Positions 29,704 through 35,765 of a stretch of 64,000 bases of DNA are shown piece by piece. The notes under the pieces are model-generated. The model made no database searches, was not told the origin of the DNA, and was given only the letters and a program-made list of their open reading frames with translations. The stretch comes from Escherichia coli (GTDB lineage Bacteria; Pseudomonadota; Gammaproteobacteria; Enterobacterales; Enterobacteriaceae), in NCBI RefSeq assembly GCF_003334355.1, contig NZ_QOWP01000005.1. One strand, written 5' to 3'. The position numbers and the translations under genes were made by a program. The stretch's first letter is position 1. Every line of letters starts with the position of its first letter.

Positions 29704-31719
29704 TCAGTGAAAAAATTGCCATTGCGTTATGCGATCGCGCAGACGCTCAGTGCGAACCTCATTAAGTGCGAACAGCGCCTGCGCGGCCTCTTCCCGCTGG
29801 CGAACCAGTAACATCTTGCGGCCTGAAAGTTTAAGTGTGGTACATAACTGCGCGTCGCTGACGTTTTTCTGTAAACGCCCACGCAGCGCCGGTAATGCCA
29901 GTTCACTGGTTTGTAGCATACGCAATAAGCAACCTAACGATGTTAATAGCGGACGATGAGCGAAAGCAAAACCGGCCAGTTCAAGCCAGTCGTCGTCAGA
30001 AAGGACGGCATCGTTTAGTGGATCAACAGGAAGCGTTTCGCCATTCCACTTTGCGAGAGCTTGCGCATCGCGACGTAAACGGTAATGCTCACGTTCAGCC
30101 AGTTGTTTACCCGCATTACTCATCGGTAACAGCGCCATCGCCGTATAGCAACCGCTGCTGGCTTCACGATGATTACCCATCCGCACCAGCACAAAACCGC
30201 AGCGGTGCCAGAAACGCCATAACTCCCCGGTGTAACCAAAACTCACCGAAAGATAGTCGAGGTCACGCGTATATTGCAAAGCACCAGCAATAAGTTGCTG
30301 CCCTGTGCCTTCCCGCTGACGCGCCGGATGAACTGCTATCCGGCTGACCCGCCGTCCACGCAATGTCGCTGCCAGTGGATTGCTACCGTGCGCCGCCAGC
30401 GACTGGGCCACCAGATTACCCCGCGGGCGACGAAAACCTGCCCATACCGCCTGACTGAGTTGTTGAGATAATCCCCCCTCATCCACCAGCCACAGCGCTC
30501 CGGCAATCTCGTTTTCGCCAGCCGCCTGTAAAAAATATTGCCCTGGTGCATCCATCATCCGGCGTAAATCCAGCGGCGAAGTCCGGTAGTGCGCACCAGA
30601 CAATAACTGATAAACCTTTAACGGCGTTTCTGGCTCGCTTCGCCATAACGTTTGTTCAAATGCGGAAATGACGATATTGCCTTGTGGTGTATGGGTGAAG
30701 TTTTCATCGTCAAAAACCAGTGCCTCACTAACCATTTTTTCCAGCGGGCATCCCTGTGCCCAGCGGATCGGCTGTTGCAGTTCAAAACGGTGTAAATGCG
30801 GAAAGCGAGCGCAAAATTTCAGCAAAAAACCACGTCCGGTGCCTTCGTAGCCCTGCACCGTAGTGGTTAACAACGTTCGAGGAAAACGCGATACCAGTTG
30901 ATGCAACAACGGCGCAGGTATGGCTGCGGCTTCGTCGACCACCAGCCAGTCGGCTTGCTCATCGCTGGCTAACAAGGCATCCGGCGCAATAAAGCGAAAC
31001 TTCTCGCCCGCAAATTGTGCCAGTACATCCGTTGCCGCTTTTGCGGGCGCGGTGACAATCGCACTGCCCGCAATACGAGAAATGAGTTGCCCTGCCAGCG
31101 CCGACTTACCGCGCCCACGCGCAGCCGTTACCGCTGCCACGCCCGGCGGCATGGTCAGTAGCTGCTGTAAGAGTTGCTGTTGTTCTGGTTGTGGTGCGCC
31201 GGTCGCGGGGTGCCAGTCAGTACGGGGAGTAAAATGCGCCAACGAGAACGGCTGGTTTTGCCGCCAGAGGATAGCGTCGTTATCCGCCGTAAGTACGCGT
31301 TTGAGATGCTGGACAAAATGCGGCGTCGCAATAGGGTCAGGGCAATCACTCCAGCGCAGCGAGTCGGCATCAGGTTGGTTTTCCCACTCTTCCCATACAG
31401 GGAGTAACAAAACCAGCCAGCTTCCCGCTTTCAACGTTCCGCTAAGTGCTGCAAAGGCAGCGGCATCAAAGCCGTGGCGGGCGTCGAATACCGCATGCCG
31501 GAACTCGCGCCCAAGTAAAGTTTGTAGTGCCGAGGGAGAACAGTGGTTTTCAGCATCTGGCTGCGGCGAAATCCACAGCCAGTCGCCAGGTAAGGCATCA
31601 CGTAACTTAAGCGCATGATCAAAACACCAACCCTCTTCCCCGCTCAACACCAGCAAGCGGCGGATCCCTTCACGTTTCATTTGCGCTGTTAATGTGTGAA
31701 GCGCAGTCAGTTCAGCCAT
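29704..31719 (-). CDS. tmcA: tRNA(Met) cytidine acetyltransferase TmcA
   Basis: 671-aa ORF; Walker A GRGKSA plus GNAT-like C-terminal region. Confidence 0.92.
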   Translation of the reverse strand: MAELTALHTLTAQMKREGIRRLLVLSGEEGWCFDHALKLRDALPGDWLWISPQPDAENHCSPSALQTLLGREFRHAVFDARHGFDAAAFAALSGTLKAGSWLVLLLPVWEEWENQPDADSLRWSDCPDPIATPHFVQHLKRVLTADNDAILWRQNQPFSLAHFTPRTDWHPATGAPQPEQQQLLQQLLTMPPGVAAVTAARGRGKSALAGQLISRIAGSAIVTAPAKAATDVLAQFAGEKFRFIAPDALLASDEQADWLVVDEAAAIPAPLLHQLVSRFPRTLLTTTVQGYEGTGRGFLLKFCARFPHLHRFELQQPIRWAQGCPLEKMVSEALVFDDENFTHTPQGNIVISAFEQTLWRSEPETPLKVYQLLSGAHYRTSPLDLRRMMDAPGQYFLQAAGENEIAGALWLVDEGGLSQQLSQAVWAGFRRPRGNLVAQSLAAHGSNPLAATLRGRRVSRIAVHPARQREGTGQQLIAGALQYTRDLDYLSVSFGYTGELWRFWHRCGFVLVRMGNHREASSGCYTAMALLPMSNAGKQLAEREHYRLRRDAQALAKWNGETLPVDPLNDAVLSDDDWLELAGFAFAHRPLLTSLGCLLRMLQTSELALPALRGRLQKNVSDAQLCTTLKLSGRKMLLVRQREEAAQALFALNEVRTERLRDRITQWQFFH

Positions 31720-31733
31720 CCCTGCCCCGGAAG

Positions 31734-32597
31734 TTAAATGCTTTTACCAAAAGTATTGCATTGTGCCGGATCGCCGCTGTCGAAACCACGTTTAAACCAG
31801 CTGTAGCGTTGCTGAGAAGTGCCATGAGTGAAACTGTCTGGTACTACTCGCCCCTGACTTTGCTGTTGTAAACGGTCATCGCCGATGGCCTGCGCCGCGT
31901 TCAGCGCCTCTTCCAGATCGCCGGTTTCCAGAACGCCTTGCTGCTGCATACTATGCCCCCAGACACCGGCAAAACAGTCGGCCTGGAGTTCCATACGCAC
32001 AGATAAGCGGTTCACTTCCGCCTGCGTCGCGTTTTGTTGCAGTTGACGAACTTTCGGCTCGATGCCTAACAGTTTCTGCACATGATGACCGACTTCATGG
32101 GCGATAACGTACCCCTGGGCAAAATCGCCATCCGCGCCAAGTTTGTCTTTCATGTCATCATAGAAGGAGAGATCGATATAAACCGTGCCATCCGCCGGGC
32201 AATAGAATGGCCCCATTATGGACTGGCCCGCCCCGCAGCCGGTACGCGTCATTCCACGGTACATGACCAGCTTCGGTTGCTGATAGGTTTTACCCATCTT
32301 CTCGAACTGCTGTCCCCAGGTGTCTTCCGTAGTTGCCAGAATCACCGAGGTGAATTTTGCGGCTTCGTCTTCATTTGGGCTAATTGACCGCGTTGATTGC
32401 TGTTGGGAAACCGGCTGTCCGGTCATCAACCCGGTTAAATCAACGCCATAGTAGCCTGCAACCAGCACGACTATCAGTAAAATCAGCCCGCCTTTACCGC
32501 TCGGCAGGCGAAAACCGGGACCGCCCATAGACGGACCACCAGAGCTGTTGCGCCTGTCTTCAACATTGTCACTTTCACGTCGCCCTTGCCAACGCAT
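31734..32597 (-). CDS. ypfJ: putative zinc metalloprotease YpfJ
   Basis: 287-aa ORF with N-terminal TM segment and HEVGH zinc-binding motif. Confidence 0.88.
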
Positions 32598-32764
32598 AGA
32601 TACCTCAACAATATATTCATTATAGAAATGATCGTAGGTGGTTCACAGGAAGATTACCACAGGAAAGCGGGATGAAATGGCGGAGGAATGAGCGTTCAAT
32701 GCACATCTTCCGAGAGCGGTTGTCTTGCCGTGCCAGCTGCACGGCAAGATGATGAACAGAAAAA

Positions 32765-33478
32765 TCAGTCCAGCTGTACACCCAGGCGGCGGGCGACGGC
32801 TTCATAGGCCTCGATCAGGCCACCGAGGCTCTGGCGGAAACGGTCTTTGTCCATTTTCTCCAGCGTTTCTTTGTCCCACAGGCGGCTGCCGTCCGGAGAG
32901 AACTCATCGCCCAGTACGACTTCACCTTTGTACAGGCCAAACTCCAGCTTGAAGTCGACCAGAATCAGACCAGCATCATCGAACAGTTTTTTCAGCACGT
33001 CGTTCGCTTTGTAGGTCAGCTCTTTCATACGCGCCAGGTTCTCTTTGCTTACCCAGCCAAAGGTTTCGCAGTAAGATTCGTTGACCATCGGATCGTGCAT
33101 GGCGTCGTTTTTCAAGAACAGATCGAACAGCGGCGGGTTCAGCTCAATACCTTCTTCGATTCCAAGACGTTTCACCAGAGAGCCCGCAGCACGGTTACGC
33201 ACGACACACTCAACCGGTACCATATCCAGCTTTTTCACCAGACATTCGGTATCGGAGAGCAGACGCTCCATTTGAGTCGGGATACCCGCTTCAGCCAGTT
33301 TGCTCATAATGAAGTAGTTGAACTTGTTGTTCACCATACCTTTGCGATCAAACTGCTCAATGCGCGCGCCATCCCCTGCTGACGTATCATTGCGGAATTC
33401 GAGCACCAACAGGTCCGGGTTTTCCGTGCTGTATACGGTTTTCGCTTTACCACGATACAACTCAGCTTGCTTTTGCAT
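32765..33478 (-). CDS. purC: SAICAR synthetase PurC
   Basis: ORF track trimmed to [16 protein letters not shown] (237 aa). Confidence 0.95.
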
Positions 33479-33526
33479 CTTTATCACTCCTGGGTGTGAA
33501 TTAACGTTTTAAAATCTTTTGCTGTC

Positions 33527-33590
<64 letters not shown>

Positions 33591-34725: not shown

Positions 34726-34741
34726 CAAATCTCCCTAAACT

Positions 34742-35620: not shown

Positions 35621-35765
35621 GGGCCATCCTCTGTGCAAACAAGTGTCTCAATGGTACGTTTGGTATGGCATTAAAAGCAAGCAGACAGAACCGTTCTGAT
35701 TGTTGTATGCATGTTTTTTTTATGCTTTCCTTAAGAACAACTCACCCCTTAAAGGAATAACCAGT

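Follow-up and report, generated by a model that had tools for sequence, protein, structure and literature searches.

Our analysis identifies ypfJ as a core gene of Escherichia coli, encoding a membrane-tethered zinc protease of a known, little-studied family. As the gene is already known and annotated, its re-description adds little; the only feature of ypfJ that is out of the ordinary, judged from alignments of its relatives, is a conserved N-terminal tail that co-evolves with the exported catalytic domain. As an overall account, we consider it probable that YpfJ is a PF04228-family zinc endopeptidase, periplasmic and anchored to the membrane, whose gene would be transcribed from its own promoter and by read-through and would be linked to tmcA by gene order.

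The gene was studied in a window of 64,000 nucleotides (the whole stretch of DNA analyzed), in which the original prediction had proposed ypfJ at 31734-32597. These coordinates hold, and the strand, which had been left unstated, is the minus strand (Table 1). The frame of 287 residues opens with ATG and closes with a TAA stop at 31734-31736, and the ORF listing contains no in-frame start further upstream. The zinc-metallopeptidase HMM search suggested along with the prediction gave a full-length match of Pfam PF04228 (Zn_peptidase) to YpfJ residues 1-283 (model positions 1-290 of 290, E = 9e-150), and NCBIfam NF050010 'Zn_HExGHH_YpfJ' (KPN_02809 family, equivalog type) scored 380.2 bits, above its curated cutoff of 250 bits. 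Both families, together with the RefSeq annotation, bear out the name ypfJ. Since ypfJ is in addition present in 5426 of 5426 complete E. coli genomes, it is not a chance ORF. The family extends over Proteobacteria, Cyanobacteria, Nitrospirota, Bacteroidota, Planctomycetota and Actinobacteria. In the full-text literature that mentions ypfJ we found no mechanistic work on the E. coli protein (substrate, phenotype or topology): the gene appears in lists only, from an overexpression screen for HOCl resistance and from an azoR co-expression cluster, neither of which gives a mechanism, and in Yersinia an insertion in ypfJ made no difference in the single assay reported.

Table 1. Features at the ypfJ locus, in coordinates of the window.
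Feature	Codons	Position	Strand	Remarks and basis
tmcA (tRNA cytosine34 acetyltransferase)		29704..31719	-	671-aa ORF; RefSeq annotation of identical region; downstream neighbor
ypfJ-tmcA junction		31720..31733	-	14 nt, CTTCCGGGGCAGGG; read from sequence
ypfJ CDS	287 codons + TAA stop	31734..32597	-	ORF listing, PF04228, NF050010, RefSeq annotation ypfJ
Catalytic zincin (gluzincin) domain	74-287	31737..32378	-	
ELQAD, ExxxD signature	203-207	31977..31991	-	on helix 192-219; E203 inferred third zinc ligand
HEVGHH zinc-binding and catalytic motif	167-172	32082..32099	-	conservation; mutants of KPN_02809
Hydrophobic segment, presumed signal-anchor	37-52	32442..32489	-	sole hydrophobic window; flank charges; M. 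tuberculosis fusions
Gly-rich, Arg/Lys-containing variable linker	18-36	32490..32546	-	low conservation; pLDDT 47-57
Conserved N-terminal motif	1-17	32547..32597	-	family consensus M[RK]W..R.S.N[VI]EDRRG; also given as MRW..RR.S.NVEDRRG
Candidate ypfJ expression signals		32603..32638	-	SD GAGG 32603-32606; -10-like TATAAT 32619-32624; CCTACGATCAT 32628-32638
Hairpin CTTGCCGTGCAGCTGGCACGGCAAG		32724..32748	-	just past purC stop; 11-bp stem by RNA folding; no U-tract

The HEVGH motif, rightly recognized from the beginning as zinc-binding, occupies residues 167-171 (window 32085-32099). In the AlphaFold model of YpfJ (pLDDT 87.8, pTM 0.87) it lies in helix 158-176, and E203-L-Q-A-D207 lies in the later helix 192-219, which is the gluzincin arrangement. 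The domain that carries the motif resembles solved zinc peptidases in three dimensions, so that the concern raised with the original prediction, an HExxH located outside a peptidase fold, is removed: the motif sits in a genuine zincin peptidase fold. The closest structural matches are endopeptidases. None of the solved structures is close, as Foldseek against the PDB returned nothing below E = 0.29, and a PDB sequence search with YpfJ found no relative (best E = 0.34, a mitoribosomal protein). Conservation among 99 relatives is nearly complete at H167 (98), E168 (97), G170 (97), H171 (99) and H172 (94), such that the HExGHH of PF04228 and NF050010, here with valine at its variable position, is kept residue by residue in 94-99 of the 99; E203 is retained in 97 and D207 in 98. 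By analogy with E166/D170 of thermolysin and E646/D650 of neprilysin, E203 would be the third zinc ligand. We thus envisage residues about 74-287 as the thermolysin-like (gluzincin) domain of a zinc endopeptidase, in which one zinc ion would be held by the two histidines of HEVGH, His167 and His171, and by Glu203 in the ELQAD helix, Glu168 would activate the hydrolytic water, and Asp207 and His258 would probably act as second-shell or transition-state residues. Peptidase family M48 (PF01435), the template family of the 2012 KPN_02809 paper, was also considered; membership was rejected because the Pfam scan gives no M48 match.

The N-terminal hydrophobic segment that had been predicted is found at residues 37-52. 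This apolar stretch (about residues 36-52, 16-17 aa) is the only one in YpfJ with a Kyte-Doolittle(19) value above 1.6 (maximum 2.05), and a plain sum of insertion free energies, made with no correction for position or length and to be read with caution, gives +2.5. In 289 relatives the N-terminal flank carries a mean of 2.78 K+R, versus 0.47 on the C-terminal flank, and the positive-inside rule is followed in 254 of them. A single apolar segment of transmembrane length with positive-inside flanks is the pattern of a bitopic type II (N-in/C-out) protein. Several further observations point to export of the domain that follows. Its cysteines vary in pairs among the 99 relatives: Cys121 and Cys133 are both present in 98 and both serine in 1, and Cys208 and Cys280 are both present in 75 and both absent in 24. 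Some relatives carry a cleavable signal peptide or a lipobox with the same Cys pairs, and one has a C-terminal fusion to DUF3465; of 114 free-standing forms of this domain, 113 start with a signal or anchor sequence. In the M. tuberculosis homolog, beta-lactamase fusions at residues 46-287, starting just past the equivalent of the apolar segment, were exported in infected mice (PMC5405230 Table S1). Taken together, these findings make a periplasmic catalytic domain the most likely arrangement. Residues 37-52 would then be an N-in/C-out signal-anchor that tethers this domain to the inner membrane, Cys121-Cys133 and Cys208-Cys280 disulfides would probably stabilize it in the periplasm, and YpfJ would most likely trim or degrade envelope proteins or peptides.

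Two side results concern the same region. The F/G variants that lack C208 and C280 belong to Bacteroidota, Planctomycetota and Calditrichia, and an attempt to link the loss to disulfide machinery across these lineages established no such link. A Tat signal was rejected for E. coli YpfJ, in which the conserved RR at residues 15-16 precedes NSSGG and is separated from the apolar segment by 20 residues; in relatives with short linkers the residues after RR (RRGMS, RRGQI) misfit by inspection.

Although the description of YpfJ as membrane-anchored is its likeliest reading, strong co-evolution that puts the N-terminal tail on the catalytic domain leaves it unsettled. Among 99 relatives that are 40-58% identical, about 95 retain the N-terminal motif, which is also conserved across phyla. 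AlphaFold assigns a pLDDT of 98 to residues 1-10 and of 90 to residues 11-20, with a beta strand at 12-15, and of less than 50 to residues 34-42; the linker varies from 3 to more than 35 residues in relatives. By mean-field DCA on 305 sequences (Meff 164), R7-D92, E8-K81, R7-A88, E8-V85, W3-V85 and N11-E91 are among the top 16 of all pairs, E13-V111 ranks 20th and R15-V111 26th, and couplings of the motif to residues 78-92, 111 and 138 fall in the top 30. The coupled residues 78, 81, 85, 88 and 92 lie on the same face of a helix. The charges at positions 8 and 81 are opposite in 66.7 weighted sequences and alike in 4.0, and positions 7 and 92 pair as R-D or E-K. The coupling replicates in both random halves of the sequence set, and its maximum is 3.49, against 1.08-1.35 after permutation of the N-terminal block among sequences. 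In these alignments the tail co-evolves, charge swaps included, with helix 74-100 and with strand 109-113, an observation that a single crossing of the membrane does not explain. The single-crossing model is in conflict with these data because the 17 residues that it leaves on the cytoplasmic side couple strongly to the domain on the C-terminal side of the segment, the side that is exported in the M. tuberculosis homolog.

In this regard, we hold as a tentative possibility, which we do not favor, that YpfJ-family proteases are not simple type-II membrane proteins, the motif being either physically part of the exported domain or in contact with it in an obligatory folded state before export. 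Two variants may be distinguished: the N-tail may leave the cytoplasm, in which case the apolar segment would be re-entrant or would be released after export, or the contact may be made in the folded pre-export state. The more specific reading, in which motif and catalytic domain share the periplasmic side and the hydrophobic segment does not persist as a single-pass transmembrane helix in the mature protein, we regard as rather unlikely. In such an arrangement residues 1-17 would contribute an extra edge strand to the domain and a stretch that packs against helix 74-100. Residues 18-73 would be looped out, their apolar part being re-entrant, interfacial or released from the membrane once export is complete. 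The couplings with their charge swaps, their replication in halves and the permutation control speak for it, as does the high model confidence of residues 1-20 next to the low confidence of residues 34-42. In some relatives the motif and the apolar segment are no more than 3-8 residues apart; across the family this segment is short, with a median length of 19 residues, and fairly rich in Gly (G+A+S+T 42%). In line with this notion, the full-length Klebsiella protein is largely soluble (PMC3269727), and the M. tuberculosis homolog has also been seen in culture-filtrate and soluble fractions (PMC5405230). Against it, the flank charges are distributed as in a classic N-in/C-out protein, and the E. 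coli segment, with its high hydrophobicity (LILLIVVLV) and a G+A+S+T of 29%, does not resemble released SAR anchors. Moreover, we know of no pathway by which a 36-residue N-tail with 7 K/R and 4 D/E could cross the membrane unless a signal precedes it, and E. coli YpfJ has no Tat-type RRxFL beside its hydrophobic region. Finally, relatives of the signal-peptide type are entirely without the motif, and therefore the fold can do without it. The type II signal-anchor stays our preferred topology.

As for the activity of the protein, the term 'uncharacterized' in the original prediction holds for the natural substrate but not for the family, since the ortholog KPN_02809 is a published zinc-dependent caseinolytic protease. 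The purified KPN_02809 of K. pneumoniae MGH 78578 hydrolyzes casein with modest activity (about 20% of trypsin), binds 1.2 Zn per molecule, is inhibited by EDTA, 1,10-phenanthroline and DTT, and is inactivated by H171S and E172D, the His mutant having lost zinc (PMC3269727). Inhibition by DTT is no proof of disulfides, because DTT can inhibit zinc enzymes by chelation. One might also suppose that casein cleavage is secondary and that the reaction of YpfJ in vivo is on another amide bond, such as peptidoglycan stem peptides, lipoprotein linkages or a small peptide signal. We find this improbable: the full HExxH...ExxxD gluzincin signature is kept, the top structural matches are endopeptidases, and it was on a protein substrate that H171S and E172D abolished the activity of KPN_02809 (PMC3269727).

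Very unlikely is a cytoplasm-facing, membrane-associated quality-control protease of the HtpX kind, with both motif and domain in the cytoplasm and a monotopic anchor. It would reconcile the co-evolution of tail and domain with the absent N-terminal signal peptide and the positive N-flank, and the Yersinia study did treat ypfJ as a candidate membrane 'site-2' protease. This reading is disfavored by the exported beta-lactamase fusions of the M. tuberculosis homolog (PMC5405230), by the relatives with signal peptides or lipoboxes, by a DUF3465 fusion partner that is an exported domain, by two Cys pairs that disappear only pairwise, and by the scarcity of K/R on the C-flank of the segment.

Regarding expression, the candidate signals ahead of ypfJ show up as conserved blocks when the spacers between purC and ypfJ are aligned for 10 Enterobacteriaceae, all with a hexamer of the TAnnnT type in the same place. 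A generic promoter and terminator scan, whose counts are at chance level, did not list the -10-like site; its sole promoter-like hit near ypfJ falls inside the coding start (32592-32565) and was disregarded. Imperfect sigma-32-like (ATTGAA-N12-CGCCATTT), sigma-E-like and CpxR-like matches upstream of ypfJ, identified by eye, are not conserved in the spacer alignment and were set aside. Within the same alignment, the hairpin CTTGCCGTGCAGCTGGCACGGCAAG occurs only in E. coli and E. albertii, and it was not called by the terminator scan. An Rfam scan of 28.5-36.5 kb gave no RNA element at the ypfJ locus and REP-type matches elsewhere only. In a published long-read study, a read-through transcript is given the name 'dapA-ypfJ operon' (bioRxiv 10.1101/262964). 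We propose that ypfJ probably has its own promoter and additionally receives read-through from dapA-bamC-purC.

Downstream, the ATG of tmcA follows on the same strand, as originally predicted, at a distance of exactly 14 nt from the ypfJ stop instead of the roughly 15 nt given before, and the same generic scan found no terminator-like site in this junction. The gap measures 2-27 nt in most Enterobacteriaceae and Erwiniaceae and about 50 nt in Pantoea; the genes overlap as TGATG in Enterobacter cloacae and Erwinia; and the two lie farther apart in Yersinia, Rahnella and Acerihabitans, by about 500-600 nt, and in Providencia, by about 1.4 kb. Co-transcription of ypfJ with tmcA is therefore plausible on sequence grounds, given the short junction free of terminator-like sites and the tight or overlapping junctions in other Enterobacteriaceae. 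Across 82 loci, ypfJ adjoins tmcA in 15, all in Enterobacterales, and in none from Aeromonas, Pasteurellaceae or other phyla that bear ypfJ; outside Enterobacterales no neighbor is conserved, the largest non-enterobacterial neighbor cluster having 5 loci. As the adjacency is confined to Enterobacterales, it reflects gene order and no shared function: the two genes would probably be co-transcribed, the linkage being an Enterobacterales gene-order feature that would entail no functional coupling. We give next to no credence to a functional coupling in which YpfJ would, for instance, process or regulate the tRNA acetyltransferase: the same-strand junction, conserved or overlapping in Enterobacteriaceae, would favor it, but the restricted range of the adjacency, on which we rejected the link, the wide gaps in Yersinia, Rahnella, Acerihabitans and Providencia, and the action of TmcA on cytoplasmic tRNA when the YpfJ domain is exported all speak against it.

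YpfJ counts among the conserved E. coli envelope proteases without a known substrate. With the catalytic domain most likely outside the cytoplasm and the tmcA linkage a matter of gene order, searches for that substrate belong in the envelope and not in tRNA metabolism. The co-evolution of tail and domain, along with their confident docking by AlphaFold, contradicts the predicted topology in a concrete and testable manner. Should the contact exist in the mature enzyme, a family found in many phyla would have an unrecognized way of arranging or activating a membrane-tethered protease; should the protein not be of type II, a non-canonical biogenesis or an anchor-dependent switch, absent from current annotation, would be implied.

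With respect to known systems, the nearest is KPN_02809, the founding member of NF050010 and PF04228, which is 82% identical to E. coli YpfJ over its full length and shares with it the HExGHH motif, the four cysteines, the N-terminal motif and the hydrophobic segment. It belongs to another genus; the zinc-protease activity assayed on KPN_02809 would carry over to E. coli YpfJ by orthology. Its published homology model, based on 3C37 at 11% identity and predating AlphaFold, covers neither topology nor the N-terminal motif (PMC3269727). Compared to the gluzincins thermolysin (M4) and neprilysin/PepO (M13), YpfJ shows only about 10% identity, and Pfam and PDB sequence searches give no connection; it is much smaller than the M13 enzymes, its surrounding helices differ, and a His directly follows the motif (HExxHH). 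Compared to M48 peptidases (BepA/YfgC, HtpX, LoiP, Geobacter 3C37 and Ste24) and minigluzincins, YpfJ lacks both a TPR domain and a multi-pass membrane domain; the N-terminal motif and the Cys pairs are features peculiar to its own family.

The M. tuberculosis 'conserved membrane glycine-rich protein', which we take to be Rv2575 from its product name, its length and a 99% sequence match, is a PF04228/KPN_02809 family member of 293 aa, 36% identical over residues 53-286. It has the layout of YpfJ (N-tail, Gly-rich linker, apolar segment, catalytic domain), an N-terminal motif, MTFNEGVQIDTS, that does not align with the proteobacterial one, and an additional Cys pair in the first helix. Because RR directly precedes its apolar segment, a Tat signal was predicted by the EXIT authors (PMC5405230).

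A likeness of another sort, in logic only and with no claim of membership, can be drawn to phage proteins. The SAR endolysins of phages P1 and 21, in which the anchor exports the domain, leaves the membrane and refolds onto the domain, are to our knowledge the only precedent for a released anchor of the kind that the coupling of tail and domain in YpfJ would call for. SAR anchors are rich in Gly/Ala (0.53-0.63 G+A+S+T in two sequences) and are preceded by N-tails of few residues, whereas the E. coli segment has 0.29 (family median 42%) and follows a charged tail of 36 residues (family mean 33) with about 7 K/R, differences on which we rejected a SAR domain in YpfJ.

Our analysis makes it quite probable that YpfJ, the 287-residue product of ypfJ, would be a periplasm-facing gluzincin endopeptidase tethered to the inner membrane and acting on an envelope substrate, with its gene probably co-transcribed with tmcA through a lineage-specific gene order. 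In this regard, the original prediction of a membrane-anchored HExxH metalloprotease is correct, for a gene that was already known; its coordinates stand, with the strand corrected to minus. The N-terminal hydrophobic stretch that it described corresponds to residues 37-52 (no other window of the protein exceeds 1.6 in Kyte-Doolittle(19)), its HEVGH motif occupies residues 167-171 with one more histidine directly after, and the short gap to the tmcA start holds, at 14 rather than about 15 nt. By BLAST, every one of the 5426 complete E. coli genomes contains region 31500-32800, with 95-99.9% identity, and RefSeq names its three genes purC, ypfJ ('KPN_02809 family neutral zinc metallopeptidase') and tmcA. 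The window belongs to the E. coli chromosome, and along its minus strand the local genes follow one another as dapA-bamC-purC-ypfJ-tmcA-ypfH.

Features at and around the ypfJ locus
Feature	Position	Strand	Details
ypfJ ORF	31734..32597	minus	ATG start; no in-frame start further upstream (ORF listing)
HEVGH codons of ypfJ	32085-32099
tmcA	29704..31719	minus	671-aa ORF, ATG start; RefSeq name tmcA
ypfJ-tmcA junction		minus	CTTCCGGGGCAGGG between TAA stop and ATG; sequence read directly
GAGG Shine-Dalgarno of ypfJ	32603-32606	minus	conserved in spacer alignment
TAnnnT hexamer	32619-32624	minus	TATAAT in E. coli; conserved in spacer alignment
Block CCTACGATCAT upstream of ypfJ	32628-32638	minus	near-invariant in spacer alignment
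Hairpin CTTGCCGTGCAGCTGGCACGGCAAG	32724-32748	minus	11-bp perfect stem, no U-tract; just past purC stop
Terminator-like hairpin, bamC-purC spacer	33684-33663	minus	9-bp stem then TTTTTT; sole strong one nearby
REP/naRNA4-like match, bamC-purC spacer	33531-33575		weak, sub-threshold, 30.9 bits, E = 0.017 (Rfam)
naRNA4 / REP-type element, Rfam RF02564	28841-28917		full-length match, 92.7 bits vs gathering score 59.5
Upstream GTG/TTG start stretch, purC	33479-33487		ORF list vs RefSeq
Upstream GTG/TTG start stretch, bamC	34726-34728		ORF list vs RefSeq
Upstream GTG/TTG start stretch, dapA	35621-35638		ORF list vs RefSeq

Several observations concern the neighbours of ypfJ. In the mechanical ORF list purC, bamC and dapA begin at GTG/TTG 3, 1 and 6 codons before the RefSeq ATG, which is an artefact of choosing the first start codon and not biology. 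Searched against NCBIfam, E. coli TmcA hits a single model, that of haloarchaeal TmcA, far below its cutoff (241 bits vs 700), and the curated library seems to hold no bacterial TmcA equivalog model, though RefSeq uses the name. The RF02564 element directly follows ypfH, where the co-directional run dapA...ypfH ends, and also scores 61.5 bits on the opposite strand.

The label 'uncharacterised' holds for the E. coli protein and its physiological substrate but not for the chemistry of the family, since the Klebsiella pneumoniae orthologue KPN_02809 (82% identical to YpfJ, HExxH at residue 171) has been expressed, purified and characterised. This enzyme hydrolyses succinylated casein, contains 1.2 Zn per molecule and is inhibited by EDTA, 1,10-phenanthroline and DTT, PMSF being without effect; an H171S substitution nearly abolishes activity and E172D significantly reduces it (PMC3269727). 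Other published work is sparse: a ypfJ insertion in Yersinia pestis did not affect PsaE-dependent psaA expression, and ypfJ is listed in an HOCl-resistance overexpression set and in a co-expression cluster.

Co-transcription of ypfJ and tmcA is likely, judging from the sequence. The terminator scan finds no terminator-like site between purC and tmcA, and the junction measures 2-27 nt in Escherichia, Citrobacter, Enterobacter, Superficieibacter and Erwinia and about 50 nt in Pantoea, the ypfJ stop and tmcA start overlapping as TGATG in Enterobacter cloacae and Erwinia. Upstream, a long-read transcript study described a 'dapA-ypfJ operon' arising from condition-dependent read-through of the dapA-bamC terminator, which is the hairpin region of the bamC-purC spacer. 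A putative promoter or operator of ypfJ's own is also suggested, because GAGG, TAnnnT and CCTACGATCAT are conserved across the purC-ypfJ spacers of ten Enterobacteriaceae. GTGGTAATC, about 20 nt further upstream than CCTACGATCAT, is likewise near-invariant in these otherwise diverged spacers; both blocks overlap the putative promoter and may form a candidate regulator binding site. The hairpin CTTGCCGTGCAGCTGGCACGGCAAG belongs to a block of ~30-40 nt that, in the spacer alignment, E. coli and E. albertii alone possess; it might stabilise the mRNA end or partly terminate transcription.

The linkage with tmcA, however, carries no functional meaning, because just 15 of 82 loci, every one from Enterobacterales, have a tmcA homologue downstream of ypfJ. 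Even there, the two genes are 500-600 nt apart in Yersinia, Rahnella and Acerihabitans, and Providencia has a gap of about 1.4 kb. Among the 82 loci, tmcA was not found beside ypfJ in Aeromonas, Pasteurellaceae or other non-Enterobacterales lineages, nor was any other conserved neighbour found outside Enterobacterales.

Five independent lines say that the catalytic domain lies outside the cytoplasm. Across 289 relatives, the 15 residues N-terminal of the apolar segment (residues 37-52, the presumed signal-anchor) average 2.78 K+R and 0.84 D+E, and the 15 C-terminal ones 0.47 and 1.54; in 254 of them the N-flank carries more positive charge, a sequence pattern that reads as the classic N-in/C-out signature. 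The four cysteines appear to act as two pairs: among 99 relatives, 98 have Cys at both 121 and 133 and one has Ser at both; positions 208 and 280 are Cys together in 75 and substituted together in the other 24, mostly by Tyr or Phe with Gly or Ala. C208-C280 is also the fourth-strongest coupling of the family in direct coupling analysis (DCA). DTT sensitivity of KPN_02809 was read by its authors as a sign of structural disulfides (PMC3269727), a weak support because DTT can also chelate zinc. Some relatives lack the N-terminal region: in its place P0217 and P0243 have a cleavable signal peptide, P0241 and P0254 have a lipobox, and P0247 combines a signal peptide with a caspase-like domain; all five retain both Cys pairs. 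In P0153, a YpfJ-type N-terminus is combined with a C-terminal DUF3465 domain (PF11948, E = 1e-45) bearing a His-rich HWTHHDP motif; free-standing DUF3465 proteins, of about 144 aa, begin with MKK and a hydrophobic signal/anchor in 113/114 cases.

The Mycobacterium tuberculosis homologue has 293 aa, shares 36% identity over residues 53-286 and bears the annotation 'conserved glycine rich membrane protein / KPN_02809 family neutral zinc metallopeptidase'; it is presumably Rv2575, given its product name, its length and a 99% match to the Rv2575 sequence. That protein is among the 593 of the EXIT in vivo export screen, in which beta-lactamase fusions at residues 46, 63, 72, 100, 116, 154 and 287 were enriched in beta-lactam-treated mice (PMC5405230 Table S1), as can happen only if the reporter is exported. 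The first of these sites, residue 46, corresponds in the alignment to E. coli D53, immediately past the apolar segment.

Two side observations concern these relatives. C208/C280 are Phe/Gly in all sampled Bacteroidota homologues and also in Planctomycetota and Calditrichia (loci L058, L061, L062, L063, L066, L079, L081 and L082), and Cys/Cys in every other lineage, which would be a clade-specific exchange of a predicted disulfide for a packing pair. P0247, of 597 aa, has its caspase-like region (VALVIGNGAY..., judged by eye) after the signal peptide and the YpfJ domain at the C-terminus, and would thus place two protease domains within one exported protein.

Standard topology puts the N-tail, the residues before the apolar segment, in the cytoplasm. 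Residues 1-17 bear the motif M[RK]W..R.S.N[VI]EDRRG, kept in nearly all relatives of 40-58% identity and also across phyla. After it come a variable linker rich in Gly and then the apolar segment; in some relatives just 3-8 residues lie between motif and apolar segment. AlphaFold models residues 12-15 as a beta strand and assigns pLDDT 98 to residues 1-10, 90 to residues 11-20 and <50 to the presumed TM segment. Mean-field DCA was run on 305 sequences of the family (Meff 164). Of all pairs separated by 5 or more positions, it ranks R7-D92, E8-K81 and R7-A88 6th-8th and E8-V85 and W3-V85 11th-12th, the top 32 also containing N11-E91, E13-V111, R15-V111 and E13-T138. The N-tail partners 78, 81, 85, 88 and 91/92 form one face of helix 74-100, and residues 13 and 15 couple to strand 109-113. 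Such coupling conflicts with a single membrane crossing, because a chain that crosses once cannot have both ends on one side.

This conflict has four alternative ways out. The contact could belong to a state other than mature inserted YpfJ, or the N-tail could finish on the outer side, the apolar stretch then being re-entrant or released. Neither of two known mechanisms for these readings fits E. coli YpfJ: for Tat export, for which the EXIT authors list a predicted signal in the mycobacterial homologue (PMC5405230), there is no Tat-type motif beside the h-region, and a SAR-like anchor is at odds with a G+A+S+T content of 29% (family median 42%) and a charged tail of 36 residues. Alternatively, the coupling could be spurious. 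The pairs, however, look physical: position 8 is E where 81 is K/R, or R/K where 81 is D/E (opposite charges in 66.7 weighted sequences, like charges in 4.0), positions 7 and 92 are R-D or E-K, and W3 pairs with V/T/A at 85 and L3 with K/R/Q. The signal is reproduced in both random alignment halves, and its maximum is 3.49 vs 1.08-1.35 after shuffling the N-terminal block between sequences, a control that keeps shared ancestry; helical periodicity and charge complementarity make a phylogenetic artefact unlikely. A cytoplasmic catalytic domain, which would also place both ends on one side, is disfavoured by the five lines for a location outside. We regard a genuinely non-canonical arrangement as rather unlikely. 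The interest of ypfJ is modest and comes mainly from this conflict, which leaves the basic identification unchanged.

That identification begins with the family. PF04228 (Zn_peptidase) is the only Pfam match, full length (E = 9e-150), and NCBIfam NF050010 'Zn_HExGHH_YpfJ', of equivalog type, scores 380 bits against a cutoff of 250. An exhaustive cluster-representative search gives 10385 clusters at E <= 1e-3, of which 1415 reach E <= 1e-30; a species-level genome scan recovers members from Proteobacteria, Cyanobacteria, Nitrospirota, Bacteroidota, Planctomycetota and Calditrichia, and a separate search mycobacterial ones. Since Foldseek with YpfJ yields no significant match, the family is a distant, separate branch of its clan. 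The HExxH was not found to lie outside a peptidase fold, and the metalloprotease reading survives. Among the 99 relatives, Y163, H171 and R264 are conserved in all, H167, D207 and H258 in 98, E168, G170 and E203 in 97, and H172 in 94; in the AlphaFold model E203-L-Q-A-D207 sits on helix 192-219, 32 residues past H171. An HExxH combined with ExxxD on a subsequent helix marks gluzincins, as in thermolysin (E166/D170) and neprilysin (E646/D650), and for this reason we infer H167, H171 and E203 as the probable zinc ligands and E168 as the probable general base. By the same analogy, H258 would play a part like that of His231 in thermolysin.
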